Shown here: positions 1-49,274 of the stretch, piece by piece
Numbering within the stretch: the first letter of the stretch is position 1
Layout of the letters: every line of letters starts with the position of its first letter
Origin: Patescibacteria group bacterium
GTDB lineage: Bacteria > Patescibacteriota > Patescibacteriia > Magasanikbacterales > GWA2-37-8
NCBI GenBank assembly: GCA_004321885.1
Contig: SCQK01000014.1
Location: 64,001-128,000 of the forward strand
Direction: 5' to 3'
DNA length: 64,000 nucleotides
The notes under the pieces: model-generated
Database searches by the model: none
Told to the model about the DNA's origin: nothing
What the model saw: only the letters and a program-made list of their open reading frames with translations
Made by a program: the position numbers and the translations under genes

Positions 1-1
1 C

Positions 2-328
2 ATGAAAATCGCCACTTTGGTCTTGCTTCTGCCAATCGCCCTGGCCGTGGAATTGGGAATACTTTTGCTGGCCGCCAAAAATGGCTGGCTGAAAGAAAAA
101 ATCAGCGCTTACGGATATTGGCTCAAAGCAACCAGTTGGAAATTATGGCTGAAAAAACGCGTGGCTCGGCAGGGCGCGCGCAAGGTCAAAGACAAAGATA
201 TTCTGCGCTCGGCCGAGAGTCGTCTGATTTTCGCGGAAAGAAGTTTCCAAAGTCCGCTCCTAAAATATTTTGGCAATCCGATTATGGCCGCCTGCTGGTT
301 TGTGGCGAAGAAGATAATTTTTTGGTAA
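2..328 (+). CDS. hypothetical membrane-associated protein (possibly 5'-truncated at window edge)
   Basis: ORF-track 108 aa ORF. The N-terminus is hydrophobic. I recognise no family motif. Confidence 0.3.
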   Translation: MKIATLVLLLPIALAVELGILLLAAKNGWLKEKISAYGYWLKATSWKLWLKKRVARQGARKVKDKDILRSAESRLIFAERSFQSPLLKYFGNPIMAACWFVAKKIIFW

Positions 329-329
329 T

Positions 330-1418: not shown

Positions 1419-2017
1419 TCCGCGTGCGCGCCGCGCACGATAACTTCGGCTTTTTTGTCGCGAGCCAGGTAGCCCACCAGGCGCAGAATTTCTTCCTGCG
1501 CTTTTTTGTTGGCAGCCTCCAGCGCCGCGGTGGTGGCCGATGCCAGCTCGGCTTGTTTGGTTAGTTCGGCGATGGCTTTGTTGTAGCCGTCGTCTTTTTC
1601 CAGCAAACGTTTCAAAATTCCCTGTTTGTTTTCCACGTTCACGTCGCCGGCCACGCGCGAGTTAAAAATCTCGGCTTGAGGCATGTATATTGTTATTTTG
1701 TTCGCGGCAACTCGCACATCGTTGGCCGTCATTTTTTTCAAATCCACGCCCACGTTCACTTCCACCACGGCCTGCGCGCGCACTACCTGGCCCCACAAAA
1801 GTTTTTGCCAAAATGTCTGCTCGCCGCTGTCTATTTTCACGCTTTGGTTGATGATATTTGTTTGGGTCACCAAAAACCCGCGCTCGCGCAGGGCTTCCAA
1901 AATTGTTTGGCTGGTGATAGCCGCCGGTTGGCTTTTTTTATTTATTTTCCAACCCAAAAATATACCCAGGCCGAAGATGGCGAGAAAGAGTATTAAAATT
2001 GTGACGAATTTTTTCAT
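1415..2017 (-). CDS. DUF4230-like membrane-anchored protein
   Basis: The ORF-track ORF 1415..2068 runs into the tRNA. The real start is taken as MKKFVTILILF (ATG 2015-2017), a signal/TM anchor. The composition is typical of DUF4230 proteins. Confidence 0.55.
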   Translation of the reverse strand: MKKFVTILILFLAIFGLGIFLGWKINKKSQPAAITSQTILEALRERGFLVTQTNIINQSVKIDSGEQTFWQKLLWGQVVRAQAVVEVNVGVDLKKMTANDVRVAANKITIYMPQAEIFNSRVAGDVNVENKQGILKRLLEKDDGYNKAIAELTKQAELASATTAALEAANKKAQEEILRLVGYLARDKKAEVIVRGAHAD

Positions 2018-2035
2018 GTCAATATTTGTTACGAG

Positions 2036-2110
2036 TCGGGCTGGCGGGACTTGAACCCGCGGCCTCATGGTCCCGAACCATGCGCGCTACCAACTGCGCT
2101 ACAGCCCGAA
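2036..2110 (-). tRNA. tRNA-Pro(CGG)
   Basis: Manual cloverleaf on the minus strand: acceptor CGGGCUG/CAGCCCG, D-arm GCGC-AGUUGGUA-GCGC, anticodon stem CAUGG/CCAUG, loop UUCGGGA (anticodon CGG), T-arm GCGGG-UUCAAGU-CCCGC, discriminator A. Confidence 0.85.
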
Positions 2111-2117
2111 TTATTAC

Positions 2118-2384
2118 TTATTTCGTTTTGATTAGTTTATCATTAATAATTTTTTCAATATAGTCTCTTCTTTTTAATCTTTTAAGTTTGAGTTCAATTC
2201 GTCTCGCTTCCGTCGTTGTTTCGTAGTGCTGTTTAAATTTTATTATCCATGGGCCTTTATTTTTTGTTGAAGGTGTCTCCCCATTATTGTGTTCAATCAG
2301 CCGGTTTTCCGGATTGTTTGAAGACCCTATATAATACATTCCTGATTTAAGACTTTGCAAGATATAAACGTAAAAACCCTCCAT
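2118..2384 (-). CDS. small GIY-YIG nuclease family protein (COG2827/YhbQ-like)
   Basis: Internal ATG of the ORF-track ORF 2118..2528. MEGFYVYILQSLKSGMYYIGSSNNPENRLIEHNNG carries the GIY..YIG..R..HN motif and a downstream conserved Glu (EARRIE). 88 aa. The stop lies 7 nt before the tRNA-Pro 5' end. Confidence 0.75.
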   Translation of the reverse strand: MEGFYVYILQSLKSGMYYIGSSNNPENRLIEHNNGETPSTKNKGPWIIKFKQHYETTTEARRIELKLKRLKRRDYIEKIINDKLIKTK

Positions 2385-2394
2385 AATTGACTTT

Positions 2395-2462
2395 TTAATA
2401 GAACCCGCGGCCTCCCCGACGTACCGTCGGGGCGCGCTACCAACTGCGCTACAGCCCGATTG
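2395..2462 (-). pseudogene. truncated/degenerate tRNA-Pro-like 5' copy (acceptor 5' strand, D-arm, aberrant anticodon hairpin, variable loop and T-stem 5' strand only)
   Basis: The minus strand reads CGGGCUGUAGCGCAGUUGGUAGCGCGC, identical to tRNA-Pro positions 1-26. Then comes CCCGACGGUACGUCGGGG, a hairpin that is not a valid anticodon arm. AGGCCGCGGGUUC follows and matches the variable loop and T-stem. The T-loop 3' half and the acceptor 3' strand are absent. Confidence 0.6.
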
Positions 2463-2464
2463 TA

Positions 2465-2509
2465 TGGATTCCCGCTTTCCCGCCAAAGGCGGGCAGGCGC
2501 GGGAATGAT
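2465..2509. repeat. family-D palindromic element (CTGGATTCC...GGAATGACA termini) with CCGCCAAAGGCGGGCAGG core
   Basis: The same termini recur at 39467, 40680, 41702, 41817, 50601, 59098, 62862 and 63469. Confidence 0.6.
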
Positions 2510-2610
2510 ACCGACAGTAGGGTATCACGTTTTTTTGCGCTTTTCAAGGGGTAAAATTTGTGATAGAATATGCCCTGTCCGCTGGATTACCAGCGACAGA
2601 TAATTTTTAC

Positions 2611-2650
2611 CCCCACCCAACCTCCCCCTTTTAAGGGGGGAGGGGAGGAG
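2611..2650. repeat. family-A palindromic repeat (CCTCCCCCTTTTAAGGGGGGAGG)
   Basis: Perfect inverted repeat just upstream of pilT. Consensus CCTCCCCTTwTAAGGGGAGG recurs at 15 or more sites. Confidence 0.7.
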
Positions 2651-2656
2651 AAACCT

Positions 2657-3688
2657 ATGAACATAGAATCATATTTCAAGGAAGCCATAAAACAGGACGC
2701 GTCGGATTTGCATTTGGTGGGCGGGGAACTGCCGCGCCTGCGCGTGGAAGGCGAGCTCAAAGAGCTTTCCGACAAGCCGCTGAATAATAAAGAACTGGAG
2801 ACCGCGATTTACACTCTCATCTCCAAAGCCCAGCAAGATAGGTATGAGGAAGACAAGGAACTGGACTTTAGCTATTCCGTGGACCAGACCCGCTTCCGCG
2901 TGAACTTGCACCAGCAGGAAGAAAACATCGGCCTGGCCGCCCGCCTGATTCCCAAAACCATTCCCAAACCAGAAGACTTGCACTTTGAACCAACGCTCTC
3001 CGAACTCACCAAACTGATGGACGGTTTGATACTGGTCACCGGTCCCACGGGTTGCGGCAAATCCACCACCATTGCCAGCCTGATTGAAGAGATAAACAAA
3101 AGCCGCCAGGCGCACATTGTGACCGTGGAAGACCCGATAGAATTTTTGTTTGAAGATAAAAAAAGTTTGATAGAACAGCGCGAGGTGGGCACGGACACGA
3201 AATCGTTTGCCAACGCCCTGAAGTATGTGCTGCGCCAGGACCCGAACGTGATATTCGTGGGCGAAATGCGCGACCCCGAGACAATTTCCACGGTGCTGAC
3301 CGCGGCCGAAACCGGCCACCTGGTTTTTTCTACCCTGCACACGCCCAGCGCGGCCGAGGCCGTGGAGCGCATTGTGGACGTGTTTGAGGGCGGCCGGCAA
3401 AAACAGGTTTTGATTCAGCTGTCGTCGGTACTGCGGGCCGTGGTGGCCCAGCAATTACTGCCGGCCAAAGACGGCGGCCGCGTGCCGGCGCGCGAGATTT
3501 TGATAAACAATTCGGCCGTTTCCAACCTCATCCGCGAAAACAATATCAACCAGATAAAATCTTCCATCCAAACCGGCGCCAAAGACGGCATGGTGACCAT
3601 GGAAAATTCCATCAAGCAATTGCTGAAAGAGGGCTGGATTACCGAGGATACAGCCGAGAAAAGAGCGGGCAAGGCGCGGAGGGTGTAA
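2657..3688 (+). CDS. pilT: type IV pilus twitching-motility ATPase PilT
   Basis: Walker A GPTGCGKSTT. PilT/PilU family motifs VEDPIEF and the His box LVFSTLHT are present. About 343 aa from the internal ATG at 2657; the upstream ORF extension is repeat-encoded. Confidence 0.85.
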   Translation: MNIESYFKEAIKQDASDLHLVGGELPRLRVEGELKELSDKPLNNKELETAIYTLISKAQQDRYEEDKELDFSYSVDQTRFRVNLHQQEENIGLAARLIPKTIPKPEDLHFEPTLSELTKLMDGLILVTGPTGCGKSTTIASLIEEINKSRQAHIVTVEDPIEFLFEDKKSLIEQREVGTDTKSFANALKYVLRQDPNVIFVGEMRDPETISTVLTAAETGHLVFSTLHTPSAAEAVERIVDVFEGGRQKQVLIQLSSVLRAVVAQQLLPAKDGGRVPAREILINNSAVSNLIRENNINQIKSSIQTGAKDGMVTMENSIKQLLKEGWITEDTAEKRAGKARRV

Positions 3689-3802
3689 ATGGATATGGAG
3701 ATGGAAATAAGTTACTCGTGAAAATTGTATTTGGGTTTGTATTTTGGTATAATGAAAGCAGAGGGGAGTTTTAATTTACCGCCAGTGGCGGGTAAAAAAT
3801 AT

Positions 3803-4312
3803 ATGCGCTTGAGAGTCATAATTTTGGCGTTGGTTTTGTTGGTCGCGGGGTTGCTGGCGGTTTTCGCTGGTTATGGATGGTTTTGGGAAAAGCAAAAACG
3901 GGTGGCGGCCGGCACGGCGCGGCCCACGTTTCCATACGGCGATTATTCGCTGGAAGAATTGGCGAAATTGTACCCGCAGACCGTGAACGAGAACGTGCCC
4001 ACCAAACAGGCGCCCGAGGAAACGCACGCGAAGTTTGTGTCTGCGTTGAAAGCGGGAAAAATTGATGAGGCAGTGGAGTGTTGTTTTAGGAAAGGGGATT
4101 GGGGGAAGATGAAAGAAGGATTGAAGAGGGTGAGGGATAAAGGCGAAATGGGCCAGATGATTAAGGATTTGGATGCGGCGATTAAACCTGATTTTGTAGG
4201 AGATACAAAGGCGAGTTATACCTATATCGTTTTAGAGAACGGAAAAAAGATTGGTAATGTTATGACTTTTATAAAAAACATTCAGGGTATCTGGTTGATA
4301 GAGTCATTGTAA
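3803..4312 (+). CDS. hypothetical membrane-anchored protein
   Basis: ATG at 3803 (MRLRVIILALVLLVAGLLAV TM anchor). No recognisable domain. Confidence 0.5.
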   Translation: MRLRVIILALVLLVAGLLAVFAGYGWFWEKQKRVAAGTARPTFPYGDYSLEELAKLYPQTVNENVPTKQAPEETHAKFVSALKAGKIDEAVECCFRKGDWGKMKEGLKRVRDKGEMGQMIKDLDAAIKPDFVGDTKASYTYIVLENGKKIGNVMTFIKNIQGIWLIESL

Positions 4313-4327
4313 TTACCCATTCTTAAT

Positions 4328-4348
4328 CCTCCCCTTGTAAAGAGGAGG
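4328..4348. repeat. family-A palindromic repeat (CCTCCCCTTGTAAAGAGGAGG)
   Basis: Inverted repeat in the intergenic region upstream of the large secreted-protein gene. Confidence 0.6.
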
Positions 4349-4361
4349 GTAATACAGCAAT

Positions 4362-7300
4362 ATGCGAAGAGCGAAAATAATATTTTTCATTATTATCTTC
4401 GCCGCGTTCAGCTCGGCCGCCTTTGGCGGTCGTGTTTTGTCTTTTGACACCAATATCGCTCATCCAAACATCGCGACATTGGCCGTAAAGCTTTACAATG
4501 AGAATTTTGACCCGGATTTAACCGAGGAACAGACGCGTTGGATAGAGCAGGGAGCTGTTGCCGAGGACACGCCCAACCGGTGGTACAACCATTTTTACGA
4601 CCCGGTCTACAATCGTGGCATCTGGTTTGGCAAACAACATTTATCAGCCAAAAATTGGGCTGTTAATCCCCGAGCTCAAACTGGTTTTGCCTTGGGCGAC
4701 AAGAGCTGGCAAAGAGCGCTTGATGATTTTAGAAATAGTGATGAGGAAAAGGCATACAGGGCCCTGGGGCATATTATTCACCTTATTTCAGATATGGCTG
4801 TGCCGGCGCATACCCGAGACGACATTCATCCGCTCGGCGATTCGTTTGAGCAATTTGTGAAAAAGAATTGGGCCAGCGCGACAAAGAATTTGCGCTATGG
4901 AATGATATCTGTATCTGATTTAGATTCAGCTTTTGATTCTGTGGCCAATTATTCAAACAATAATTTTTATAGTGATGATACGATTGAAAATAAAAAATAT
5001 CAGAATCCAGATTTGAATCACATTATACTAAAATATGTGGAAGTTGGAAATGGCATTTCTTATAAATTTTTAGTCAATTCAGTTGGTGGTCAAGAAAGTT
5101 TGCTTTGTAGAACTAATAGCAATAAGAATTGGTTAGACACTCTTGGGGATGACATTCTAAAAGAGTGCAAAGTTGGTGATGATCTCGTTCTCACCGACTA
5201 CTCCCGCCACCTGCTCCCAAAAGCCATCGGTTACAGCGCCGGAATTATTAAACTATTTTTTGACCAAGCCAAGAGTGATAAGGAAGTGGGTAATTTGCCC
5301 GGCAAAAGAACTAGTTTTTCCGGATACCTTGATCAATTTCTTGGTTTCGCTGTCTCGGGAGCGGAAAAATTATACAGCGTGATTAAGATAGCGTTAGGAA
5401 TAGAGCCGGCTTATTCCGAGGGAAGCGCGGAGATTGAGGAACAAGCGCCCTCCCTCCCGCCAGAGGCAGGCAAGCATCAAGGGGAGGGAACGACCACAAC
5501 CACACCAACCACGCCAACCACGACCAACGTCGCGCAGACCACGACCAAACCCAAACCCCCCGCCACCATAAAAAAAGCGGTCGGGAGAAAGACCGGGGCG
5601 TCTGGCGCGCCGGTCGCTGGCTCCATAGTCCCCGACTTAGTCGGGGCTGTGGAGCCCAATGCCAGCACCCTGGCTCCACAGCCTCCTGCGGGGGACAATG
5701 GAGCCAGCCAAGAAGGAACGACGACCACGCCTGTGTATTTTCCTCCATCGTCAAGAGACGGGGGAGCGTATCCGCCAAATACCCCTCCCCTAATAGGGGA
5801 GGGAGATGTTGTGCCTACCACCACCCCGACACCCACCACCACCCCGTCTTCTACAACTACCCCTTCGTCCACCACCACCCCAACCCCCTCCCCCACCACC
5901 ACTCCCACCAGCACTCCGGCTCTGCCACCGCCACCGCTCGTCATCAGCGAAATCGCCTGGGCCGGCACCTCGGCCGCCAGGTCCAACAACGAATGGCTGG
6001 AGCTTTACAACAACTCCACCTCGTCAATAGATTTCACCTCGGGCTGGAAAATTTTTGTTTCCGGCGCCCAGCTCAACATCTCCAATTTTGTTAATCCAGT
6101 CATTTTACCAAAAACATATTACCTGTTGGAACGCACCGACGATTTTACGGTCAAAGAAATTTCCGCGGACGCGATTTACACCGGCGCCCTAAACAATAAT
6201 GGCGCGAAAGTGGAACTCGTCAATCCAAGCGGAGAAACCATAGACACCGTGGACGGCTCCTCGGGCTGGTTCGCGGGTCAGGCCAGTCCCAGTTACGCTA
6301 GTATGGAAAGAAAAGACCTCACCGCCAGCGGTACGAGTCCCGGCAACTGGCAATCCAGCATTGGCGGGCGCGCCACTGGCACGAGCGATGAAATGCCGCC
6401 CAAGCCCATCATGGGCTCGCCCAAACGCCCCAATTTCGGCTACATTGTGCTTACTGGTACCCAAGCCCAAACCACCCGCACACTCACCACAGACAACAGT
6501 CCCTATCTTTTGTGGAGTTACACTATTCCAGCCGGCTTTACATTAAACATCAATCCCGGCGTGGTGATAAAAAGTTACACCCAAAGCGCGGTGATGATTG
6601 TAGATGGGACGCTGAATGTTGGCGGGGGAGACAATAAAGTCATCTTCACCTCGGGCAAAGACCAGTCTTTCACCAGTCCCGACCTCAACCTGATAGACAT
6701 CAATTATCTTTGGACAACTCCCGGGCCGGCTGAAAAAGATTGGCAGGGGCTGTGGTTCAAGCCCGGCTCCCAGGGCAACATCGCCAATACAGAAATCAGA
6801 TACGCGGGCAAAGAGTTTTACCCCACCGGAGGCCCGGCCATGTCCCAGGGCATTCGCGCCGAATCCGGGCTTTCCCTATCAAACTCCACCATCGCCAACT
6901 CCGGCTCCGCGCTTATCTTTCTCCAAAATGCTTCTTCCACCATTACTAACACCAACTTCACCGGCTCCGATCTGGCCATAGAAGCCAACAATTCCCGGCT
7001 CACAATCAACGGCGCGCACTTCACGGGCTTTGGCTCACAGGGCCCTTTGCAAATCAAAGACGCCTGGCCCGAATTTTCCAATCTCACCTACACCACCGGC
7101 ACTGTGCCTTATGCCCGTTTGTACATGGTAAAAACCAGCGCCCCGCAGACCACGGCCAAAAAAGAAATCAATTACCTCTTTGACAACATTGAAGTGGCGT
7201 CTTCCACCACCTTAAACATTGAACCCGGCGCCAACGTCAAAATGACCAACAGCTCCATACTCACGGTCAATGGCGTTCTCAATGCCAATGGCACGCCCAC

Positions 7301-7805: not shown

Positions 7806-9298
7806 ATAAAATTTTCAAAAAAATTCAGGCAGTGGCCCAAAAAAATAAGACCCCGTGCTATGTGGTGGGCGGTTTTGTGCGCGATATGCTGATGGACAAG
7901 GCGCGGGAAAAAGACGTGGATTTTGTGATTTTGGGAAGCGGGCTGGGGTTTGCCAAAAAATTTGACCAGGCCATGAAGCAAGAGGGGAGTTTAATTGAGT
8001 TTCCGGATTTTGACACGGCGCGGTATATTTTGACCCCTTCTAAATCCTCCCCTTATCAAGGGGAGGATAACGAGCAAATCGTGCTGGAGTTCGCGGGCGC
8101 GCGAGGGGAAGAATATGACGAGAAAAGCCGCAAGCCCAGGGTAAAGCCGGCCACGTTAAAACAAGATTTAGAGCGCCGCGATTTTACCATCAACGCGATG
8201 GCCATGAGTATTGACGACTACCCCTCCGGCCGTCCGCCACAGGGCGGACGGCCGCCTCCCCTTATAAAGGGGAGGCTGATAGACCCGTTCGGCGGGCAGG
8301 AAGATTTGAAAAATAAAATTCTGCGCACGCCGCTTGACCCGGACAAAATATTTTCCGAGGACCCTTTGCGCATGATGCGCGCCGCGCGCTTCGCGGGCCA
8401 GCTTGGTTTTGCCATAGACACTTTTGCTTTGCAGGCCATTTACCGCAACCGCGAGCGCCTGAAAATCGTTTCGGCCGAGCGCGTGCAAGAGGAGCTGTTA
8501 AAAATGCTTTCCACGCCCGAGCCATCTATTTGTCTGGCTCTGCTTTTTCAAACCCACCTGTTGGATTTGGTGTTGCCAGAGGTGGCCAAGCTGGACGGGG
8601 TGGAAGAAATTTACGGCCACCAGCACAAAAACAATTTATCACACACCTTTAAAGTGGTGGACAATATCGCCGAGCGCTCGCCCAAAGTCATGTTGCGCTT
8701 TGCCGGCCTGCTGCACGACATCGGCAAGGCGTCCACTAAAAAATTTATTCCGCGTCAGGGCTGGACTTTTTACCAGCACGAGCACATGGGCAAAAAAATG
8801 GTTTATCAAATCGGCAAGCGCCTGCGCTTGTCCACGGACCACACGGATTATTTGGCCAAAATGGTGCGCTGGCACCAGCAGCCGATAAGCCTGATGGACA
8901 AGGGCATCACGGATTCGGCGGTGCGTCGCCTGATTGTGAATTTGGGTGATGAGTTGGAAGATTTGTTGATACTTGGCCGGAGCGACATTACCACGGGCAA
9001 TCCGTTGAAAAAAGAAAAACGCCTGGGCAATTACGACCGACTGGAAAAGCGCATTGCCGAGGTTTTGGAAAAAGATAAATTGCGCGCCTTTCAGTCGCCG
9101 GTGCGCGGGGAAGAAATCATGAAAGAGTGCGGCTTGAAAGCCGGGCCGACAGTGGGAAAAATAAAAGACGCGATAGAGGAGGCCATTCTTGACGGAATCA
9201 TACCAAATGAGTATGATAAAGCGAGGGAGTACTTGTTTGAAATTAAGAATAAGTATCTGGAAAAAGCCCAGGATTGGGAAAGAGTGAAAAATATATGA
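7796..9298 (+). CDS. cca: CCA-adding tRNA nucleotidyltransferase / poly(A) polymerase family with HD domain
   Basis: GGFVRDMLM...DVDFV is the class II nucleotidyltransferase head. The HD motif LLHDIGK is present. 500 aa. Two in-frame palindromic insertions lie at 8044..8068 and 8226..8276. Confidence 0.85.
   Translation: MVLDKIFKKIQAVAQKNKTPCYVVGGFVRDMLMDKAREKDVDFVILGSGLGFAKKFDQAMKQEGSLIEFPDFDTARYILTPSKSSPYQGEDNEQIVLEFAGARGEEYDEKSRKPRVKPATLKQDLERRDFTINAMAMSIDDYPSGRPPQGGRPPPLIKGRLIDPFGGQEDLKNKILRTPLDPDKIFSEDPLRMMRAARFAGQLGFAIDTFALQAIYRNRERLKIVSAERVQEELLKMLSTPEPSICLALLFQTHLLDLVLPEVAKLDGVEEIYGHQHKNNLSHTFKVVDNIAERSPKVMLRFAGLLHDIGKASTKKFIPRQGWTFYQHEHMGKKMVYQIGKRLRLSTDHTDYLAKMVRWHQQPISLMDKGITDSAVRRLIVNLGDELEDLLILGRSDITTGNPLKKEKRLGNYDRLEKRIAEVLEKDKLRAFQSPVRGEEIMKECGLKAGPTVGKIKDAIEEAILDGIIPNEYDKAREYLFEIKNKYLEKAQDWERVKNI
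8226..8276. repeat. composite palindromic insertion (GGCCGTCCGCC..GGCGGACGGCC plus family-A CCTCCCCTTATAAAGGGGAGG) in-frame within cca
   Basis: Encodes PSGRPPQGGRPPPLIKGRL. Two adjacent perfect inverted repeats. Confidence 0.7.
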
Positions 9299-41736: not shown

Positions 41737-41861
41737 GTTAATTAGCTCATTCTATCTTAACAGATTATAATTTTTTGTCCATAATTGACATTTTCGCTAT
41801 TTTTTTCTATAATAGTTGTCATTCCGGACTTGATCCGGAATCCAGCTCCTTTGAAAATAAA

Positions 41862-41905
41862 TTCCGGGGTAGCGCTCCGCCAGCCGGCGGAGGTAGCGCA
41901 GTTGG
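41862..41905 (+). pseudogene. truncated tRNA-Asn-like 5' fragment with 17-nt hairpin insertion
   Basis: UCCGGGGUAGCGC equals tRNA-Asn positions 1-13. Then the hairpin UCCGCCAGCCGGCGGAG. Then GUAGCGCAG, which matches tRNA-Asn 17-25, before the sequence diverges into the GIY-YIG ORF. Confidence 0.5.
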
Positions 41906-42156
41906 CTGTGTATACTGTTTACGCTATTTACAATCAAAAAAACGATAAAATTTATATTGGACAAACAAAAGACATGGCCGAACGATTAAGGTTGCATAAT
42001 GAAAAAATCCTTCTTGGTTATACTTATAGATTTGATGGAAATTGGAAATTAATTTATAGTGTACAGATCGAGAATAGACAAAAAGCTTTACAAAGAGAGA
42101 GACAACTTAAAAGTTTTAGAGGCAGAGAATTTATAAAACAATTTATTCCGGGGTAG
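41902..42156 (+). CDS. small GIY-YIG nuclease family protein (COG2827/YhbQ-like), TTG/GTG start
   Basis: VYTVYAIYNQKNDKIYIGQTKDMAERLRLHNE (GIY-YIG..R..HN) and a downstream Glu (RERQLK). GGAGGT Shine-Dalgarno sits 7 nt before the TTG at 41902. The stop TAG lies inside the first 10 nt of tRNA-Asn. Confidence 0.65.
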   Translation: MAVYTVYAIYNQKNDKIYIGQTKDMAERLRLHNEKILLGYTYRFDGNWKLIYSVQIENRQKALQRERQLKSFRGREFIKQFIPG

Positions 42157-42218
42157 CGCAGCGGTAGCGCAGAGGACTGTTAATCCTTTGGTCGTGGGTT
42201 CGAATCCCACCCCCGGAG
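42147..42218 (+). tRNA. tRNA-Asn(GUU)
   Basis: Acceptor UCCGGGG/CCCCGGA, D-arm GCGC-AGCGGUA-GCGC, anticodon stem GAGGA/UCCUU with loop CUGUUAA, T-arm GUGGG-UUCGAAU-CCCAC, discriminator G. Confidence 0.85.
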
Positions 42219-42220
42219 CA

Positions 42221-42350
42221 AAAACAAAAATACTGGTAATATCCAGTATTTTTGCTTTTGCTCGGAATACACGAAAAAATACGAACGGATTTGGGCGAAT
42301 TTTAGGGCGCGGGCGAAATTCCCTCCCCACACCCCTTCCTTTCGCCCGCG
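42221..42350. repeat. left ~130-bp inverted repeat (includes tRNA terminator hairpin AAAAATACTGGTAATATCCAGTATTTTT)
   Basis: About 88% identical to the reverse complement of 47421..47550. Confidence 0.7.
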
Positions 42351-42528
42351 AAGCGAAACGGGGGCTCTGGTGGACAAAAACTGCCAAAGAACCCGTAAAA
42401 AATGTCGGCCGAACTTTATGTTGGCCAAAAGCAAACTTTTCTCTTTGATATTGAATTACGATTGTTAAAGTGATATAATCAAGTCAATGAGCGTCCCATT
42501 CTTGCTATCTTATGTATACTATCATACT

Positions 42529-42735
42529 ATGGAAGAAAAGAAAACAATCGGCGAAAAAATAAAAAAATGGAGAGCGAAGAAAGATTTGACACAAGACGCC
42601 TTGGCAAAAAAGGCGGATATTCCATATAGCACGATTGCTAAAATTGAATCAGATGTTATTACGAGGCCAACAATACAGACAGTGCAAAAGCTGGCCGTTG
42701 GTTTGGGTATAACACTTGATGAATTATTAAAATAG
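42529..42735 (+). CDS. XRE-family HTH transcriptional regulator (candidate RM controller C-protein)
   Basis: KIKKWRAKKDLTQDALAKKADIPYSTIAKIE is an HTH_XRE. 68 aa. Directly upstream of the MTase. Confidence 0.7.
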   Translation: MEEKKTIGEKIKKWRAKKDLTQDALAKKADIPYSTIAKIESDVITRPTIQTVQKLAVGLGITLDELLK

Positions 42736-42736
42736 T

Positions 42737-43618
42737 ATGGTTAAAGGTCACAAAGTGAAAAATGAAAAAATCGATAAAAAAATAGCTTTTGGTTGGTATG
42801 GCGGTAAGTTTAGTCATCTTGACTGGCTTTTGCCGCTGTTGCCGGAAACCGATCATTTTTGTGAGCCGTTTGGTGGCTCTGCTGCCGTTATCATAAACAG
42901 AAATCCTTCTTTAATCGAAACATATAATGATTTAGATGGCGAGGTAGTTAATTTCTTCAGAGTATTAAGGGAACATCCTAACGATCTTATAAGACAAATT
43001 GGGCTTACTCCATTTTCGAGGGAAGAATTCAAATATGCTATTGAACACGAAGATGATAAAAATCTTTCAGATATTGAGAGGGCTAGGTCTTTTTTTATCC
43101 GCGCAAGGCAGGTTAGGACTGGACTTGCTCAAAAAGCTACTTCTGGTAGATGGGCAAATTGTAAATTAACTTCCAGAGCCGGAATGTCAGGTGCGGTCTC
43201 GAGGTGGTTGGGAAGTGTTGACGGGCTAACAGAGATTGCGGAAAGGCTTTTACGAATACAAATTGAAAATGCTCCTGCAATTGAAGTTGTAAGGCGATAT
43301 GATAGCCCACAGACCTTATTTTACTGTGATCCTCCGTATACACATGATTCTCGAGGTGATATAAATGCCTATAAATTTGAAATGGACAGGGATGCGCATG
43401 TCGAACTGGCCGAAACACTAAAACAGGTTAAGGGGTTAGTCGCTATATCGGGTTACGACTCTCCCCTAATGAACGAGCTGTATCAAGGATGGAAAAAAAT
43501 CGCTGGGCCAGTAAAAAATGCAAATTCTATACAACAACCTAGACAAGAAATTTTATGGGTTAATTATAATATTAATGATAAATCTTTATGGAAAAAGCAG
43601 CAAAGATCCTTGATATAA
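42737..43618 (+). CDS. DNA adenine methyltransferase, Dam/D12-class (N6-adenine)
   Basis: Motif I FCEPFGGSAAV. Motif IV FYCDPPYT (DPPY). Confidence 0.85.
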   Translation: MVKGHKVKNEKIDKKIAFGWYGGKFSHLDWLLPLLPETDHFCEPFGGSAAVIINRNPSLIETYNDLDGEVVNFFRVLREHPNDLIRQIGLTPFSREEFKYAIEHEDDKNLSDIERARSFFIRARQVRTGLAQKATSGRWANCKLTSRAGMSGAVSRWLGSVDGLTEIAERLLRIQIENAPAIEVVRRYDSPQTLFYCDPPYTHDSRGDINAYKFEMDRDAHVELAETLKQVKGLVAISGYDSPLMNELYQGWKKIAGPVKNANSIQQPRQEILWVNYNINDKSLWKKQQRSLI

Positions 43619-44709
43619 TTTTGAAAAAAACTAATGGGCATCTAGAAAAACCTTTTATAAAAAATAGGGAGATTTTGCGGAAAATAGAATTTATTTCTCA
43701 TAATATTCAAAATCGAGCCGGCGTCCGCCTTATTATGTCTTGCTTACTGGCGAAACTTGACGATCCAAAAGTTGATGTAAGAAAACCTTATACGGAGATT
43801 GGCAGTCGTGATAGTTTTTCGGGCAGAACATATGACGAGGCCTATGTCGGCAGTTTTATCACTAAACATCACTTGCCGTGTAATCCAACAACAGCGTTTT
43901 TGACGCCAGCTCTACGTAATAGAAATATTGTACTTACGCCAAAAGTAAATTTAGTCGGCAGGCCACCAGAAATTTATCAATACGTTCTCGACCTCCTAGA
44001 ATTAGTATTTAAAGGATTTCTTGCCCCAGCCATTCTGCTTGCGGAAATAATGCGACAACTTGTTCTTTTACGAGATGAAAATCAAAAACGTATAAAATCT
44101 TTGTTAAAGAATCTCGGGAAAAATGGTAGTGTGCCTCTTTCGGGTGAAGACATAATAAAACTTATTGAGCAACATTTAAATTGCAAAGGAGCCAGCAGAC
44201 TTCCCGTACTTATCGTGGCCGCTGCTTACAACACTATTGGAAATTTCATCCAAGAAAAAGTATTACCTATCTTTTCTCACAATTCTGCAGATAAACAAAC
44301 TGGTGCGCTCGGCGATATACAAATTACGTTAATTAATGACGAGAATGTAGTAACTAGTTATGAGATGAAGATGAAGAAGGTCACAAAGGACGACATTGAT
44401 ATCGCTCTGCAAAAAATTTCGGGAGTTAAGTACAAAATAGATAATTATATTTTTATAACGACGGATATAATAGATGATTCGGTAAAAGAATATGCGAAAT
44501 CACTTTATGAGCAAACCGGCGGAATAGAGATAGTTGTCTTAGATTGTATTAGTTTTCTTAGGCATTTTATTCATTTATTCCACCGCTTCAGATTGCCATA
44601 TCTTGAAGAGTATCAAAAGTTGGTGATGGGTGAAGCAGACAGCGCGGTCAGTCAGCCCCTTAAAGAGGCATTTCTTGCTCTTCGACAGGCAACAGAAAGC
44701 GCGAATTAA
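43588..44709 (+). CDS. putative type II restriction endonuclease (PD-(D/E)xK-like)
   Basis: Overlaps the MTase 3' end. Candidate GD...(17 aa)...EMK motif (ALGDIQITLINDENVVTSYEMKMK). Confidence 0.45.
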   Translation: MEKAAKILDIILKKTNGHLEKPFIKNREILRKIEFISHNIQNRAGVRLIMSCLLAKLDDPKVDVRKPYTEIGSRDSFSGRTYDEAYVGSFITKHHLPCNPTTAFLTPALRNRNIVLTPKVNLVGRPPEIYQYVLDLLELVFKGFLAPAILLAEIMRQLVLLRDENQKRIKSLLKNLGKNGSVPLSGEDIIKLIEQHLNCKGASRLPVLIVAAAYNTIGNFIQEKVLPIFSHNSADKQTGALGDIQITLINDENVVTSYEMKMKKVTKDDIDIALQKISGVKYKIDNYIFITTDIIDDSVKEYAKSLYEQTGGIEIVVLDCISFLRHFIHLFHRFRLPYLEEYQKLVMGEADSAVSQPLKEAFLALRQATESAN

Positions 44710-44802
44710 TGCAATAAAATAGTAAAAATGCAACCTTTTTCGGTGTGCGACGTTATATTATTGGGAGCTAAATATGACGATTATTAAAAAGTGTTTATCT
44801 TT

Positions 44803-45447
44803 ATGGATATTGAAGCCGAAAAAGAACAAATCGTGAAGGCCCAAAGTAATATCAAGGAGTTTGCGCCTTTATTTGATGAATATTACCCCCAAATACTTAA
44901 ATATTTAATAGGGCGTATCCGCAGTGTGGAAATTGCCCAGGATATTGCATCTGTTACATTCTTGAAAGCCTTAGAGAATATAAAAAAATTTAACTGTCGG
45001 GGGATTAGCATATCATCGTGGCTGTACCGAATAGCTACGAACGAGGTCACTACATATTTTAGAAAAAATAAAACCCTTTCACTCGATGAGATAAGGGCAT
45101 GTGAAAATTTTGATCCGCCCGCTATCGGCAACCCGTACATTGAAATTGTCCAGGCGCAGGAAAAAATTGAAAATGATAAAAAATTTTTGAATCTACAAAA
45201 TGAGATTCTAAAATTACATATAAATTATCAAGAAGTCATAATGTTGCGATATTTCGAGAAAAAACAAATAAATGAGATAGCAGAAATTTTAAATAAAAGC
45301 GAGGGGACGATTAAATCTCTCCTCCATCGAGGTTTGAAAAAATTAAAAAAAAATTTTCAACTACACAACAGTGACGCCAGAACGCAACCTTTTCAAAATA
45401 AAAACGTTCTAAATATAGAACAGGTACTAGTACCCATAAAATTATGA
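44803..45447 (+). CDS. ECF-type RNA polymerase sigma-70 family factor
   Basis: Region 2 (WLYRIATNEVTTYFRK) and region 4 HTH (EVIMLRYFEKKQINEIAEILNKSEGTIKSLLHRGLKKLK). Confidence 0.75.
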   Translation: MDIEAEKEQIVKAQSNIKEFAPLFDEYYPQILKYLIGRIRSVEIAQDIASVTFLKALENIKKFNCRGISISSWLYRIATNEVTTYFRKNKTLSLDEIRACENFDPPAIGNPYIEIVQAQEKIENDKKFLNLQNEILKLHINYQEVIMLRYFEKKQINEIAEILNKSEGTIKSLLHRGLKKLKKNFQLHNSDARTQPFQNKNVLNIEQVLVPIKL

Positions 45448-45686
45448 ATGACCTACAGGAGTTAGAAAAAATGTTAGAGGAGATCGAGGTTCCGTCTGTG
45501 GACTTAAATATAAATAAGGAGTTGTTGAAGAGTTACCTATTTAGAAATGAGCGGGTTGAATTTGAGAGCAGCAAACAAGATAACTCCATATTTGCCCCGC
45601 AGTTTGAATTTTTACCTTGTCCGTCATTTACGTATGATTATTTAATTAATGATTTTAATTCAACTACATATGTCCTTAGTTATTAA
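45444..45686 (+). CDS. small hypothetical protein, translationally coupled to ECF sigma (candidate anti-sigma/partner)
   Basis: ATGA start/stop overlap with the sigma gene. 80 aa. Confidence 0.4.
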   Translation: MNDLQELEKMLEEIEVPSVDLNINKELLKSYLFRNERVEFESSKQDNSIFAPQFEFLPCPSFTYDYLINDFNSTTYVLSY

Positions 45687-46632
45687 TGTAACCACACCCG
45701 AAGGAATTGTGTTAGCAGCTGATAGTCGTCAAAGCTACCGCAACCAAAAAGGCGCAGCCCGTATAGGCAGCGATAACGCTTCGAAACTGTTTAAATTAAA
45801 CGACCGGATAGCTGTTGCAGCTACAGGCATGGCCTTTTTACCTGAAAAAGGAATGCTTAAAAATATAAGTAAATTTATAGAACAATTTAAAAAAATTGAA
45901 ATTGAAAAAATAGAAAATATATCAGTTAAGGAAACGGCAGAAAAAATTCATGAATATTTCAAAAGTATATACAAAGTAGAAGACCAGATAAGGGCAATTG
46001 AGCAGCAAATTACAAATGATATCGCAAAAAACGGGGGTAAAATATTGAGAACAGACGCTAAAAAAAATATAGTTATTGTAGAGTTTGAAGATGCAAATGG
46101 GAAAAAAGGTGTTGCCAACGTAGTTCTGGAGCCCTTGAATTTCATGGTGGCTGGTTTTAATAGCAATTTCGATTCGCACGAGGTTTACACGTGTAGAATA
46201 CCGGGGGGGATAGAATTAAAAAGAAATAGTAGCGTGGATAATAAAGAGTATGGCGCCTCGTGGGAAGGGCAAAATGATGTGGTAGCGCGAATTGTCTTGG
46301 GTTTTGATCCTAGGATAGGGAATATAAAATTTGTACAAGAAGCAGCGGAAAAAATTGGGAAGGATCAAATTAATGAACAGCTTAGAAATTTAGAATACGC
46401 AATACAATGGGGCACCATGACTTTGCAAGATGCTATCGACTTTTGTGTGTTAATTATAAAAACAACCTCAGCCATTCAAAGATTTTCGGATGGCATTAAA
46501 GCTGATCCTGGTGCAATCCCTGGCGTGGGCGGCTCCATCGATGTGGTGGTCATCAGACCAGAAGAGGGGTTTAATTGGGTAAGTAAAAAGAAGTTATCTA
46601 TCAATGAAAATTGTTCAGAAATAAATTTTTAA
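45670..46632 (+). CDS. proteasome beta-subunit/HslV-like Ntn-hydrolase family protein with C-terminal extension
   Basis: MSLVINV-TTPEGIVLAADSRQS...SKLFKLNDRIAVAATGMA aligns with the 20S-beta TTIVG..GVVLAAEKR...RKIFQIDDHIGCAMSGLA (Thr1, Asp/Glu17, Lys33). Confidence 0.5.
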   Translation: MSLVINVTTPEGIVLAADSRQSYRNQKGAARIGSDNASKLFKLNDRIAVAATGMAFLPEKGMLKNISKFIEQFKKIEIEKIENISVKETAEKIHEYFKSIYKVEDQIRAIEQQITNDIAKNGGKILRTDAKKNIVIVEFEDANGKKGVANVVLEPLNFMVAGFNSNFDSHEVYTCRIPGGIELKRNSSVDNKEYGASWEGQNDVVARIVLGFDPRIGNIKFVQEAAEKIGKDQINEQLRNLEYAIQWGTMTLQDAIDFCVLIIKTTSAIQRFSDGIKADPGAIPGVGGSIDVVVIRPEEGFNWVSKKKLSINENCSEINF

Positions 46633-46656
46633 TAAATTATTTTTAACTAATAGTTT

Positions 46657-47301
46657 ATGAAAAAACCTCTTTATATAATGCTCCATCACTCGGCTGTTTC
46701 ATACGACAAAAATCCAGATCAATTTGATGCAAATAATAATTACCATAAAGCACAGTGGAATTTTAAAGGTTCCCTTGGTTTTTATCTTGGTTACAATTAC
46801 GAAATATCTAAAACCGGCCTGACACGACAAGCCCGAGCAGACGGTGAAGTTACGGCAGCATGCTATCAAAAAGATATGAACGATGGTAGGTGTATACATA
46901 TTTGTATGGATGGCCACTTCGATCAAGAAAAACCAACGCCAGAACAAATAGAGGCGTTAAGAAAATTGCTAAAACAAAAATTCGAGGAGCACAATATCAA
47001 AAGAGAGAACTTAATTTTTCATAGGGATTACGCCCCTAAAACCTGTCCGGGGTCTAATTTAGACATAAAAAATATTCGCGATCTTGCCACACCGGAAGGC
47101 AATGAATTGTACGCAGCCGCATTGACGCTTATGAAAGAGAATAATTCACCAGCTATTTACTTTTTCGGTTTTGATAATATGTGGCACGGACTTGGGGATA
47201 TGGATATTTTAAAATCATTAAAAGGAAACTATAATCCAGTAGAAATAATGAAAGTAGAAAATCTCCCTGATAATATTTCATTTTCAATAGGCAAACAATA
47301 A
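46657..47301 (+). CDS. N-acetylmuramoyl-L-alanine amidase, Amidase_2/PGRP (phage T7 lysozyme-like)
   Basis: Zn-ligand pattern LHHSA...HRDYAPKTCPG. 214 aa. Confidence 0.75.
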   Translation: MKKPLYIMLHHSAVSYDKNPDQFDANNNYHKAQWNFKGSLGFYLGYNYEISKTGLTRQARADGEVTAACYQKDMNDGRCIHICMDGHFDQEKPTPEQIEALRKLLKQKFEEHNIKRENLIFHRDYAPKTCPGSNLDIKNIRDLATPEGNELYAAALTLMKENNSPAIYFFGFDNMWHGLGDMDILKSLKGNYNPVEIMKVENLPDNISFSIGKQ

Positions 47302-47420
47302 AAAGCTGCGTTTCCGCCAAAGCCGAGCGAAGCTCGGTATCCCGCCGCAACAAGTAGCGTCGGGATGAAAAACTGGAAATCGTCATTCGTCGGAGATCCC
47401 TCCGCCCAAGGCGGGCAGGC

Positions 47421-47550
47421 ACCGCGGGCGGAAGGAAGGGGTGTGGGGAGGGAATTCCGCCCGCGCCCTAAAATTCGCCCAAATCCGTTCGTATCTTTTC
47501 ATAAGTCCCGAGCAAAAGTAAAAATACTGGTAATATCCAGTATTTTTTGT
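47421..47550. repeat. right ~130-bp inverted repeat (inverted copy of 42221..42350)
   Basis: CCGCGCCCTAAAATTCGCCCAAATCCGTTCGTAT...AAAAATACTGGTAATATCCAGTATTTTTT. The hairpin loop is retained in the same plus-strand orientation. Confidence 0.7.
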
Positions 47551-47573: not shown

Positions 47574-48197
47574 ATGCTTGGCCTGACAAAATCCGAACTG
47601 AAAATTTTAAAAAGACTCAACACGCCCATAAAAATTCAGAATTTTTTGGATACCTTTCCGATAAATTGGGAAAAGAAAGGCGAGACATACATGTCGCCCG
47701 GCCGGTCGCTTGGCGCGCGCAAGATACATTGTTTTGAGGGCGCGCTTTTGGCGGCCGCGGCTTTGTGGATAAACGGCGAACAGCCGTTGCTTTTAGACCT
47801 AAAAGCCAAAGGCGACTTTGACCATGTGGTGGCGCTGTACAAACGAAACGGCTATTGGGGGGCGATAAGCAAAACCAATCACGCCACTCTGCGTTGGCGC
47901 GACCCGGTGTATAAAACCCTGCGTGAGCTGGCCGTGTCGTATTTCCACGAATACTTTGACAACAAGTTTTACAAAAAACGCCTGGTCAGTTTTTCCCGGC
48001 CGTTTAACTTAAAAAAATACGGCGCCAAGTGGATGGCGGCCGAAGAAGACCTGCACGAGCTGGTGGATGCTTTGGACCACTGCCCGCACGAAAAAATCTG
48101 CCCGCCCAAAAACGCGAAATATATCCGCCGGGCGGACAAAATGGAGCGTCGCGCCGGCCGGCTGATTGAGTGGAAAAAATCTCATCCGCGTACTTGA
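47574..48197 (+). CDS. hypothetical protein (possible Cys-His hydrolase fold, weak)
   Basis: 207 aa. HCFEGALLAAAAL...DHVVALY motifs. No confident family. Confidence 0.45.
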   Translation: MLGLTKSELKILKRLNTPIKIQNFLDTFPINWEKKGETYMSPGRSLGARKIHCFEGALLAAAALWINGEQPLLLDLKAKGDFDHVVALYKRNGYWGAISKTNHATLRWRDPVYKTLRELAVSYFHEYFDNKFYKKRLVSFSRPFNLKKYGAKWMAAEEDLHELVDALDHCPHEKICPPKNAKYIRRADKMERRAGRLIEWKKSHPRT

Positions 48198-48353: not shown

Positions 48354-49274
48354 ATGCAAGCCCAAAGCTATCTGTTAATCGTATTCGCCGGTATTATTAT
48401 CGGTTTTTTGATATTTGACCTGGGTTTTCTAAATCGTCAAAGCCACAAAATTGAATTCAAGCCCGCTTTACTTCAGTCCATTTTTTGGATCGCGGTCGCC
48501 CTTATTTTCGGGCTTTTGATTTTAAGATTCATGGACCAAACCCTGGCCGCGGAATTTTTCAGCGCCTATGTCACCGAAAAAATGCTGTCCGTGGACAATC
48601 TGTTCGTGATGATGCTCATATTCAGCTATTTCGGTCTGGAAGAAAAGTACCACCACAAGGCGCTGTTTTGGGGAATAATGGGAGCCATCATTTTTCGCGG
48701 CATTTTTATCAGCGCCGGCTCTTTCATCGTCGGCCAGTTTCATTGGGTGCTTTACATTTTTGGCGCGATTTTAATTTACACGGCCTTCAAAATTTTGAAA
48801 GACAAAAAAGAAGAGCATATTGATTTCAGCCGCAACAAAGTTATCAGGCTGGCGCGCAAATATCTGCCCTTCACCGCCAGCCATCACGGGGGCAAATTTT
48901 TCTTCAGAGAAAAAGGCAAATTTTTCTTCACCTCGCTGTTTTTGGTGGTACTGCTCGTGGAAGCCACCGACATAATTTTCGCCGTTGATTCCATTCCGGC
49001 CGTGTTCGCCATATCGCAAAATTTATTCATCGTGTTCACCTCCAACATTTTCGCCATCATGGGTTTGCGCGCCCTTTTCTTCCTCATAGAAAACGTCTTG
49101 CACCAATTTCACCACCTGCAAAAGGGACTGTCCTTTATTTTATTTTTCATCGGCGCTAAAATGCTTTCCGGCATTTTCGGTCTGCACATCTCTTCGCTTA
49201 TCTCTTTTGGCATAATCATGTTAGCCCTCGCTTTATCCATAATTCTCTCGGTTGTGTTCCCGAAAAAGATTTGA
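48354..49274 (+). CDS. TerC-family integral membrane protein
   Basis: Multiple TMs with the conserved TerC segment EKMLSVDNLFVMMLIF. 306 aa. Confidence 0.8.
   Translation: MQAQSYLLIVFAGIIIGFLIFDLGFLNRQSHKIEFKPALLQSIFWIAVALIFGLLILRFMDQTLAAEFFSAYVTEKMLSVDNLFVMMLIFSYFGLEEKYHHKALFWGIMGAIIFRGIFISAGSFIVGQFHWVLYIFGAILIYTAFKILKDKKEEHIDFSRNKVIRLARKYLPFTASHHGGKFFFREKGKFFFTSLFLVVLLVEATDIIFAVDSIPAVFAISQNLFIVFTSNIFAIMGLRALFFLIENVLHQFHHLQKGLSFILFFIGAKMLSGIFGLHISSLISFGIIMLALALSIILSVVFPKKI

Follow-up and report, generated by a model that had tools for sequence, protein, structure and literature searches.

In a 64-kb stretch of an uncultured Patescibacteria genome (the whole stretch is called the window below), seven genes lie between a tRNA-Asn gene and the gene for a conserved 207-amino-acid (aa) protein, framed by long inverted repeats. 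We find that this island is probably a 5.27-kb foreign segment (42254-47519) that was inserted into the terminator hairpin of the tRNA-Asn gene and brought with it a two-part cargo. One part would be a restriction-modification (R-M) system preceded by a helix-turn-helix (HTH) gene, and the other an operon activated by its own extracytoplasmic function (ECF) sigma factor, which also encodes an 80-aa partner, a proteasome-like N-terminal nucleophile (Ntn) hydrolase, and an amidase. The borders of the segment are made up as follows.

42147..42219, + strand: tRNA-Asn(gtt) (ARAGORN; Rfam tRNA, 73.4 bits), whose 3' end and terminator form the left border and target side
42226..42253: left 28-bp direct repeat, the core of the tRNA-Asn terminator hairpin (11-bp stem, 6-nt loop TAATAT, 11-bp stem)
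42254..42350: left terminal inverted repeat X, a hairpin CGCGGGCGAAA-loop-TTTCGCCCGCG (folding z-score -5.7)
47302..47422: non-coding spacer directly inside the right arm (GC 0.595, small hairpins)
47423..47519: right terminal inverted repeat X', delimited by repeat search, alignment, and scripted comparison
47520..47547: right 28-bp direct repeat (hairpin core), which with the subsequent TGTTA appears native upstream of the 207-aa gene
47574..48197, + strand: gene for the 207-aa conserved Patescibacteria protein, the right flank and synteny anchor, outside the insert

The original prediction had inverted repeats flanking an island beside tRNA-Asn, and these are real. A repeat search of the window returned two arms of 125 nt each (42226-42350 and 47423-47547) that are 90% complementary and 5072 nt apart, above the 80% that had been set beforehand as the threshold for their alignment, and a 35-nt core of the arms occurs exactly twice in the 64 kb as compared to zero times in shuffled sequence. 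MAFFT alignment and a scripted comparison of the arms gave 13 mismatches, which are unevenly spread: four fall in the 6-nt loop of the terminator hairpin, seven in 42254-42278, and the final two at 42316 and 42342, which compensate each other as an A-T to G-C change in an internal stem of X. The inner 72 nt are 97% identical, and the two arms share an identical stretch of 37 nt.

The two parts of each arm behave differently. On the + strand the loop sequence is TAATAT in either copy, and we therefore read the hairpin core as a perfect direct repeat (42226-42253 and 47520-47547, same strand, 28/28 including the asymmetric loop); reading it as inverted costs four mismatches within the 6-nt loop. 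The direct repeat can be extended to 41 bp (42213-42253 and 47507-47547, 38/41 or 93%) and then takes in the 3' tip of the tRNA, which gives both borders the direct repeats with a tRNA 3' end that mark tRNA-targeting elements. X and X' are the sole unambiguously inverted part (88/97 identical). Of the inverted copy of the tRNA terminator plus ~100 bp that had been described earlier, the inner 97 nt stand as inverted, and the 28-bp hairpin proves to be directly duplicated. A terminator-like site lies at the left hairpin, and both arms carry terminators. The 121-nt spacer inside the right arm, with three small GC-rich hairpins, resembles neither island nor host in composition and has no counterpart on the left; an Rfam scan of 40-50 kb returned nothing besides the tRNA.

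Two independent signals, the second of them the sharper, distinguish the segment from its surroundings. GC content is 0.49-0.51 in the flanks and falls to 0.38 in the block of HTH, methyltransferase (M), and endonuclease (R) genes, 0.357 from the sigma gene to the Ntn gene, and 0.361 in the amidase gene. Short palindromic sites that are rare in the rest of the window occur in the island at close to their expected frequency.

GATC: 30 observed and 164.5 expected in the rest of the window; 14 observed and 15.6 expected in the island
TCGA: 19 observed and 146 expected in the rest of the window; 19 observed and 19.3 expected in the island
CTAG: 12 observed and 38.5 expected in the rest of the window; 7 observed and 8.9 expected in the island

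At the host rate the island would be expected to hold 4.4 GATC and TCGA sites, and it holds 33 (P 2.7e-18). As these sites span 42771 to 47395, both halves of the cargo are foreign, and the insert was clearly acquired horizontally. The host DNA outside 42254-47519 strongly avoids GATC (0.18 of expectation), TCGA (0.13), and CTAG (0.31), which suggests long exposure of the host to restriction systems of these specificities.

Related genomes indicate what the site looked like without the segment. The best identity of the 207-aa flank protein is 71% among GTDB species genomes and 85% in metagenomes, with other genes upstream of it there, and in the GTDB species genomes with a relative of this protein (at most 71%) no tRNA-Asn lies next to the flank gene. 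Locus L039, with an 84%-identical orthologue, has the identical 28 bp plus TGTTA before the gene, preceded by a different gene and with no X'. In L037 (83% orthologue, 963-kb contig) the sequence behind tRNA-Asn begins with GCGAACAAAAATAATGG, which is how the window's left hairpin starts; 5.5 kb of unrelated genes separate it from the 207-aa gene. L006 has 6.9 kb of yet other genes between tRNA-Asn and its 207-aa gene, including an AbiE-type pair as judged from translations. X is found neither downstream of tRNA-Asn in L037 and L006 nor upstream of the 207-aa gene in L039, L037, and L122.

Judging from these comparisons, the interval from tRNA-Asn to the 207-aa gene is a variable site, with a native hairpin on either side and an X that is not native. 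Because the same hairpin stands before the 207-aa gene in L039 and its start stands behind tRNA-Asn in L037, insertion into the hairpin is the best reading, and a variable interval with the native hairpin on both sides and a non-native X makes insertion with duplication of the hairpin the simplest history. No relative has the island genes in a conserved core context, the outcome in sister genomes that had been set beforehand as refuting the prediction, and the differing interval joins the GC drop and the absent site avoidance in bearing out the prediction of an acquired island next to tRNA-Asn.

A similar arrangement exists at another tRNA-Asn. In L041, the tRNA 3' tip and terminator hairpin are directly repeated 1.1 and 4.8 kb downstream, flanking inserted segments, and a pair of partner and Ntn genes sits between copies of a shorter dispersed repeat within that array. 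Over positions 1-5414 of this locus, short gene segments behind tRNA-Asn are parted by five to six copies of a 50- to 112-nt repeat, and two of these copies are followed by the duplicated 3' tip and hairpin of the tRNA. Such an array resembles a series of integrations at tRNA-Asn, or a set of cassettes there.

In the history we favor, the segment would have entered a single ancestral hairpin between tRNA-Asn and the 207-aa gene. Its insertion would have duplicated the hairpin core, giving the 28-bp direct repeat (41 bp at 93% with the tRNA 3' tip), and X and X' would be the insert's own ends, imperfect inverted repeats of 97 nt. The cargo would then be enclosed first by the terminal inverted repeats and, outside these, by the direct repeats. 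On excision the ends would join as a long palindrome centered on the host-hairpin copy, which would resemble an attachment (att) site.

If the arms were instead host sequence, they could be the scar of a rearrangement in which ~125 bp (hairpin plus X) were copied inverted to the far end during an inversion or insertion, as an inversion-linked duplication. The inverted alignment does run unbroken over 125 nt through the hairpin, and the GC of the arms (0.47-0.49) is host-like. In addition, in the four loci with the closest relatives of the Ntn hydrolase (L027, L033, L035, and L040) the trio of sigma, 80-aa, and Ntn genes stands tail-to-tail with a tRNA gene (Leu or Arg), an arrangement that the window's segment would match if flipped. 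We nevertheless consider such a scar unlikely. An inverted copy would leave the four loop mismatches within 6 nt, X is missing from both sides of the site in the relatives named above, and the right hairpin with its TGTTA has its ortholog in L039, before the 207-aa gene there, and so is not a copy of the left hairpin.

The structure of X raises a further alternative, two copies of a short dispersed repeat, similar to repetitive extragenic palindromic sequences or miniature inverted-repeat transposable elements, that flank the genes by chance or mobilized them as a composite unit. X folds into a stable hairpin, its GC is host-like, and the sole two differences in the inner 72 nt are the compensatory pair. 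We give this explanation little credence, as X has only two copies in the 64 kb, the 1.1 Mb of related loci contain no other, and each copy adjoins the duplicated hairpin as a mirror image of its counterpart. Scans with 23- to 29-mers of the arms gave no exact match in JGI metagenomes or IMG/VR, which is weak negative evidence since exact matching is blind to copies of 85-90% identity.

The first half of the cargo comprises three closely spaced genes behind a promoter-like site.

42451..42479, + strand: sigma-70-type promoter-like site (TTGAAT-17-TATAAT, TG-extended) upstream of the HTH gene
42487..42735, + strand: XRE/HTH_3 protein, 82 aa from the first ATG or 68 aa from the ATG at 42529
42737..43618, + strand: D12/Dam-class N6-adenine DNA methyltransferase (Pfam PF02086, 4.6e-21)
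43588..44709, + strand: SacI-family type II endonuclease candidate, 373 aa, overlapping M by 31 nt

The methyltransferase also matches PADLOC MTase_II (2.3e-54) and PHROG 56 (3.6e-68), and its translation contains FGGSAAV and DPPY. The endonuclease candidate scores 23.8 bits with Pfam RE_SacI (cut-off 19.3), and a GD...EMK motif was read by eye; a PDB sequence search with this protein gave no match. RefSeq genes annotated as 'restriction endonuclease, SacI family' match it with 58-59% identity across 92-95% of its length; they come after a 'DNA adenine methylase' gene on plasmids from Nostoc, Calothrix, Aeromonas, and Comamonas. The M-then-R order of these plasmid pairs is the same as in the window, and so is the gene overlap in the Nostoc plasmid examined. 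A methyltransferase with its motifs and an adjacent endonuclease are the expected signs of a type II R-M system, and the pair appears to be an ordinary member of a common, plasmid-borne kind. The prediction of a type II M-R pair with an upstream HTH gene is confirmed by Pfam, PADLOC, and the plasmid pairs, and the 373-aa protein can now be assigned as SacI-type. GAGCTC, the SacI site, received no support as the specificity of the system, being unavoided in the host (10 observed, 13.9 expected).

The window differs from the plasmid copies by the HTH gene at the front of the operon; none is annotated in those examined. This gene precedes M with a 1-nt gap, rather than R, and its product matches Pfam HTH_3 (3.6e-16) and PADLOC Control_protein (1e-8). 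Among the loci fetched, the nearest HTH proteins (57% identical) are those beside a serine recombinase in L073 and L074. The protein may be an R-M controller, or instead a repressor of the element: its earlier identification as an XRE HTH holds, and the controller role ascribed to it is a candidate role.

The second half of the cargo is the sigma operon.

44729..44755, + strand: ECF-type promoter P1, TGCAACCTTTT-N12/13-CGTTA, upstream of the sigma gene
44803..45447, + strand: ECF sigma factor (Pfam Sigma70_r2 and Sigma70_r4_2), start at 44791 or 44803, with ATG 44803 likely, as in relatives
45384..45408, + strand: ECF-type promoter P2, GCAACCTTTT-N11-CGTT, within the 3' end of the sigma gene and before the 80-aa and Ntn genes
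45444..45686, + strand: 80-aa partner with no known domain, joined to the sigma gene by an ATGA overlap
45670..46632, + strand: proteasome-like Ntn (threonine) hydrolase with insertions, 320 aa, overlapping the 80-aa open reading frame (ORF) by 17 nt
46657..47301, + strand: Amidase_2 (T7-lysozyme/PGRP type) N-acetylmuramoyl-L-alanine amidase, starting 24 nt past the Ntn stop

The sigma factor scores 86 bits with NCBIfam sigma70-ECF (cut-off 42.9). P1, whose -35 element is of the AAC kind and whose -10 element is of the CGT kind, is invariant in five loci (the window, L027, L033, L035, and L040) in which the adjacent bases diverge, so that both the domains and the conserved promoter of an ECF sigma module are present. 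At the position of P2 the relatives match a stricter promoter motif, which has no other site in the window. As P1 and P2 both lie on the sigma factor's own operon, the sigma factor most likely activates its own expression.

The predicted translational coupling of the sigma gene to the 80-aa ORF stands, given the ATGA overlap. The 80-aa protein has no match in Pfam, PHROG, PADLOC, or NCBIfam; a full HMMER search placed its family in three clusters among 1.84 billion representative proteins, and a word-indexed search for relatives returned the query itself only. In the relatives its gene always lies between the sigma and Ntn genes, and we propose that the protein is an anti-sigma factor or a substrate of the hydrolase. 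In the four loci with the closest Ntn relatives, the sigma factor has 208-212 aa and the partner 79-80 aa, and the Ntn gene starts with the same 17-nt overlap; neither the amidase nor this R-M system occurs there. The four genes from sigma to amidase had been put forward as a quartet; sigma, 80-aa, and Ntn are indeed a conserved, rare trio, and the amidase is an add-on seen only in this window.

Between the terminator of the trio and the tRNA 3' ends (Leu-taa, Arg-gcg, Arg-ccg), the four related loci share a conserved element of ~75 nt.

L027 8990-9084: ~75-nt element
L033 10985-11074: ~75-nt element
L035 10135-10223: ~75-nt element
L040 about 2310-2408: ~75-nt element

Its hairpin shows apparent compensatory changes by eye, and the sequence may form the end of an element, serve as an att arm, or encode a small RNA; nhmmer found no match to it in the window. 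A TerC gene (window 48354-49274; L027 9345-10265; 78% aa identity) lies within two genes of the trio in both loci, on opposite sides of it and in opposite relative orientation, which is either chance or the trace of an old rearrangement.

The N terminus of the Ntn hydrolase matches Pfam Proteasome at 25.2 bits (cut-off 22.4). The protein belongs to a family of at least 1429 members, ~60% identical to one another and some of them named as Patescibacteria, of which the closest, in the four trio loci, are 72-74% identical. Conserved motifs read MSLxINxTTPEG...DSRQS...SDNASKLF, and in 41 sequences M1, S2, L3, N6, D18, and K39 are invariant and T8/T9 nearly so; their equivalence to the proteasome Thr, Asp/Glu17, and Lys33 was judged by eye. 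An AlphaFold2 model (predicted local distance difference test score 77) contains long extra helical and beta elements, and in a Foldseek search of the PDB it matched 20S subunits (probability 1.0, E 5e-7). The model and the residues point to a proteasome beta fold with its catalytic residues, in line with the proteasome-beta/HslV-like Ntn call made earlier. A phage origin of the gene was considered and rejected, as peptide patterns had no match in IMG/VR and tblastn found none in GenBank phages.

We examined 86 loci with an Ntn gene. The gene upstream varies among a LexA-type winged-helix protein (~330 aa, translationally coupled), a TPR protein, a PIN protein, and nothing, and within a few kb of the Ntn gene there are DNA methyltransferases in at least 16 loci and serine recombinases in seven. 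Homology of the 80-aa partner to the C-terminal tails of the LexA-type partners was rejected (hhalign probability 0.2%). Many of the unrelated upstream ORFs in these loci, read in different frames, end in '..NNST..', which most likely reflects a nucleotide motif, AAYTCAACT, 5-15 nt upstream of the Ntn ATG (about 45655-45665 in the window). The motif was deduced from the peptide tails rather than read from DNA, and is unlike a Shine-Dalgarno sequence.

The amidase matches Pfam (2e-16), PHROG endolysin (2e-15), and PDB amidases as well as T7 lysozyme, and its translation contains the Zn ligands of Amidase_2 (His, His, Cys) in HHS...FHRDYAPKTCPG, followed by a C-terminal domain of ~70 aa. The endolysin match agrees with the phage-type amidase anticipated earlier. 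None of the related trio loci encodes an amidase.

With both halves described, it can be asked whether they came together. The HTH-M-R block and the sigma operon might have arrived separately, with the R-M genes entering an older element and the operon serving the host in envelope stress or cell-wall remodeling. The M-R pair does occur alone on plasmids of unrelated phyla, the trio in L033 has neither recombinase nor R-M genes in the recovered stretch, and Ntn genes in many genomes have core-like contexts such as ftsZ and nrdR. This explanation has to contend with the low GC and missing site avoidance common to both halves, with methyltransferase or R-M genes near the Ntn gene in at least 16 of the 86 loci, and with the gene order HTH, R, M, (partner), Ntn in L073, L074, and L081, and we regard it as improbable.

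How the segment moved is less apparent from its gene content. Scans with Pfam, PADLOC, PHROG, and NCBIfam found in none of the seven island proteins a recombinase domain, and hence none of the integrases or recombinases that tRNA-targeting elements carry inside; tblastn with the serine recombinase of L027 found no serine recombinase in the window. A segment lacking a recombinase would be a decayed remnant or a non-autonomous element. Relatives of its cargo are better equipped. In L027 and L035, a 437-aa large serine recombinase lies directly upstream of the trio and next to the tRNA. The order in L078 is tRNA-Asn, serine recombinase, LexA-type partner, Ntn, and that in L073 is serine recombinase, HTH, R, M, partner, Ntn. 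The serine-recombinase element that bears the trio in L027 also contains a LOOT RNA (4698-4816, - strand; Rfam RF03000, 78.8 bits).

The original prediction left it open whether the island was mobile or invertible. All seven genes lie on the + strand, with one promoter for the HTH-M-R block (42451) and another for the sigma operon (44729). With one gene direction, separate promoters, and terminators in both arms, a flip would change nothing obvious, and neither an invertase nor a promoter or gene part that inversion would switch was found. Logan contigs of the source run end inside the right arm, and we rejected these ends as a sign of inversion, their positions being those at which the 37-nt identical stretch splits a k=31 assembly graph. 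A phase-variable segment that switches expression of the cargo or a neighbor, as the long inverted repeats bracketing it and the contig breaks might suggest, is therefore very improbable: the foreign island at tRNA-Asn stands, and with no invertase, genes that point one way, and nothing that reads across the arms, there is no support for an invertible element.

The reading we prefer, a foreign segment inserted into the terminator hairpin, can then be completed as follows. The segment would be a decayed or non-autonomous member of a family of Patescibacteria elements whose other members carry a large serine recombinase and lie beside tRNA genes, including tRNA-Asn. Its first cargo, the HTH gene and the plasmid-type type II M-R pair, would act in defense or addiction. 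Its second cargo, the operon of sigma, 80-aa protein, threonine hydrolase, and amidase, would be expressed from two ECF-type promoters, with the sigma factor driving its own operon from P1 and P2. We infer that the 80-aa protein would hold the sigma factor inactive and that the Ntn hydrolase would remove the 80-aa protein, resulting in positive feedback, with the amidase co-expressed in this genome as the output of the switch. In sister loci the same protease would act on a LexA-type repressor.

Several points weigh against this account. No candidate enzyme for the insertion came up among the island proteins. No relative among the GTDB genomes or the metagenomic relatives of 83-85% identity has a contiguous empty site of tRNA-Asn, hairpin, and 207-aa gene, and the ancestral site is pieced together from two separate relatives, L037 and L039. 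The hairpin is itself palindromic, so that nothing but the 6-nt loop and the choice of the flank that continues tells the direct reading from the inverted one, and one flip of the loop would turn the geometry into a pure 125-nt inverted duplication. The GC of the arms is host-like, not island-like. Within the operon, the 80-aa protein has no match to an anti-sigma domain, the proposed roles rest on gene order and translational coupling, and most of the 86 Ntn loci do not have the 80-aa partner upstream (LexA-type winged-helix, TPR, PIN, or nothing takes its place).

A more specific version of the same idea can be offered tentatively, as possible rather than probable. The trio might be a self-contained proteolytic switch of Patescibacteria mobile elements with positive autoregulation, in which a cytoplasmic threonine protease frees an ECF sigma factor from a minimal anti-sigma factor and, in sister loci, inactivates a LexA-type repressor. 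The island might then be a recombinase-less cassette that enters terminator hairpins via a long palindromic att site, with a recombinase supplied in trans.

The DNA upstream of tRNA-Asn shows signs of another insertion. A perfect TTGACA-17-TATAAT promoter at 41785-41813 is followed by a partial 5' copy of tRNA-Asn (41864-41912) and then by a small GIY-YIG ORF that runs into the intact tRNA-Asn and has its stop codon there. In L037 the anticodon loop of the tRNA-Asn gene (4193-4516) is interrupted by a group I intron (Rfam RF00028, 86.7 bits), and the 5' exon of this gene is closer to the window's partial copy than the window's own tRNA is. Based on this match, an intron or homing-endonuclease insertion seems to have left the GIY-YIG gene behind as a remnant, and a tRNA free of the intron to have been regenerated downstream. 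L027 has an exact 23-nt copy of the tRNA-Leu 5' end (9148-9170 and 9249-9271), 101 nt from the tRNA, which resembles the duplicated 5' part of tRNA-Asn in the window.

The closest published counterparts of the island's architecture are R-M units with imperfect inverted repeats and a target duplication but no transposase, described as a putative mobile form (Furuta, Abe, Kobayashi 2010, PMC2853133); the same paper describes R-M insertion with long target duplication. These units and the island alike hold R and M inside the unit with no transposase or integrase. In both, the longer inner inverted repeats are unique to the unit (in the island 88/97 identical and present in two copies only) and the outer direct repeats align elsewhere, as the 28-bp repeat does with L039, and in both the reading comes from genome comparison alone. 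The island's inverted repeats are longer (97-125 nt as compared to 26-65 nt in the cases quoted from PMC2853133), its target duplication is a 28- to 41-bp terminator hairpin including the tRNA 3' tip rather than 8 bp, and it differs further in its four-gene sigma operon and in having no clean empty site.

With tRNA-linked integrative islands, the segment shares its position against the 3' end of tRNA-Asn, direct repeats that contain the 3' tip and terminator, foreign composition, an interval that varies in relatives, and cargo whose relatives accompany a large serine recombinase beside tRNA genes including tRNA-Asn. Unlike those islands, it has no integrase inside, and its long terminal inverted repeats are untypical of them. 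Serine integrases normally leave only a 2-bp shared core, from which the 28-bp repeat of the window differs.

ECF sigma factors paired with anti-sigma factors under regulated proteolysis include SigW-RsiW, SigE-RseA, and SigV-RsiV. The sigma operon resembles these modules in its apparently autoregulated promoter with an AAC-type -35 and a CGT-type -10, in the coupled small gene downstream, and in the protease proposed to release the sigma factor. It differs in its proposed protease, which is neither a membrane site-1/site-2 protease nor Clp but a proteasome-like threonine hydrolase of the cytoplasm that the operon itself encodes, and in a partner that lacks both a recognizable anti-sigma domain and a membrane segment. 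The ECF reclassification paper mentions in its main text no ECF group with a proteasome-like neighbor (PMC7826278).

Proteasome homologues with multiple insertions (PMI-3 and PMI-4), whose function is unknown, have been described along with other new homologues, with PMI-3 represented by an OGZ-prefixed accession (Fuchs, Alva, Lupas 2021, PMC8665760). The Ntn hydrolase is like them in its beta-like fold, its conserved Thr/Asp/Lys, and its long insertions after H1/H2 and beyond. The OGZ prefix presumably denotes a candidate-phyla metagenome genome. The insertions after H1/H2 in our structural model fit the published description of these homologues (PMC8665760). That description is without gene context, and the links of the Ntn hydrolase to sigma factor, LexA-type partner, methyltransferase, and recombinase come from the present analysis. 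Overall, the island's architecture is of a known kind and its R-M system appears ordinary, and the operon of sigma factor, partner, and proteasome homologue is a rare variant whose function we infer.

These results delimit foreign DNA in a genome without close relatives by two independent signals, GC content and lost avoidance of restriction sites. They extend to Patescibacteria the transposase-free layout in which inverted repeats and a target duplication enclose an R-M unit, the target here being a terminator hairpin. They also place a member of an Ntn family found across Patescibacteria (at least 1429 proteins), and without known function, in an operon most likely transcribed by its own sigma factor. 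Elsewhere the same enzymes are coupled to LexA-type DNA-binding proteins, often near methyltransferases and serine recombinases. Together these associations provide a testable hypothesis for the Ntn enzymes, namely that they may exert proteolytic control of a transcription regulator on mobile elements.

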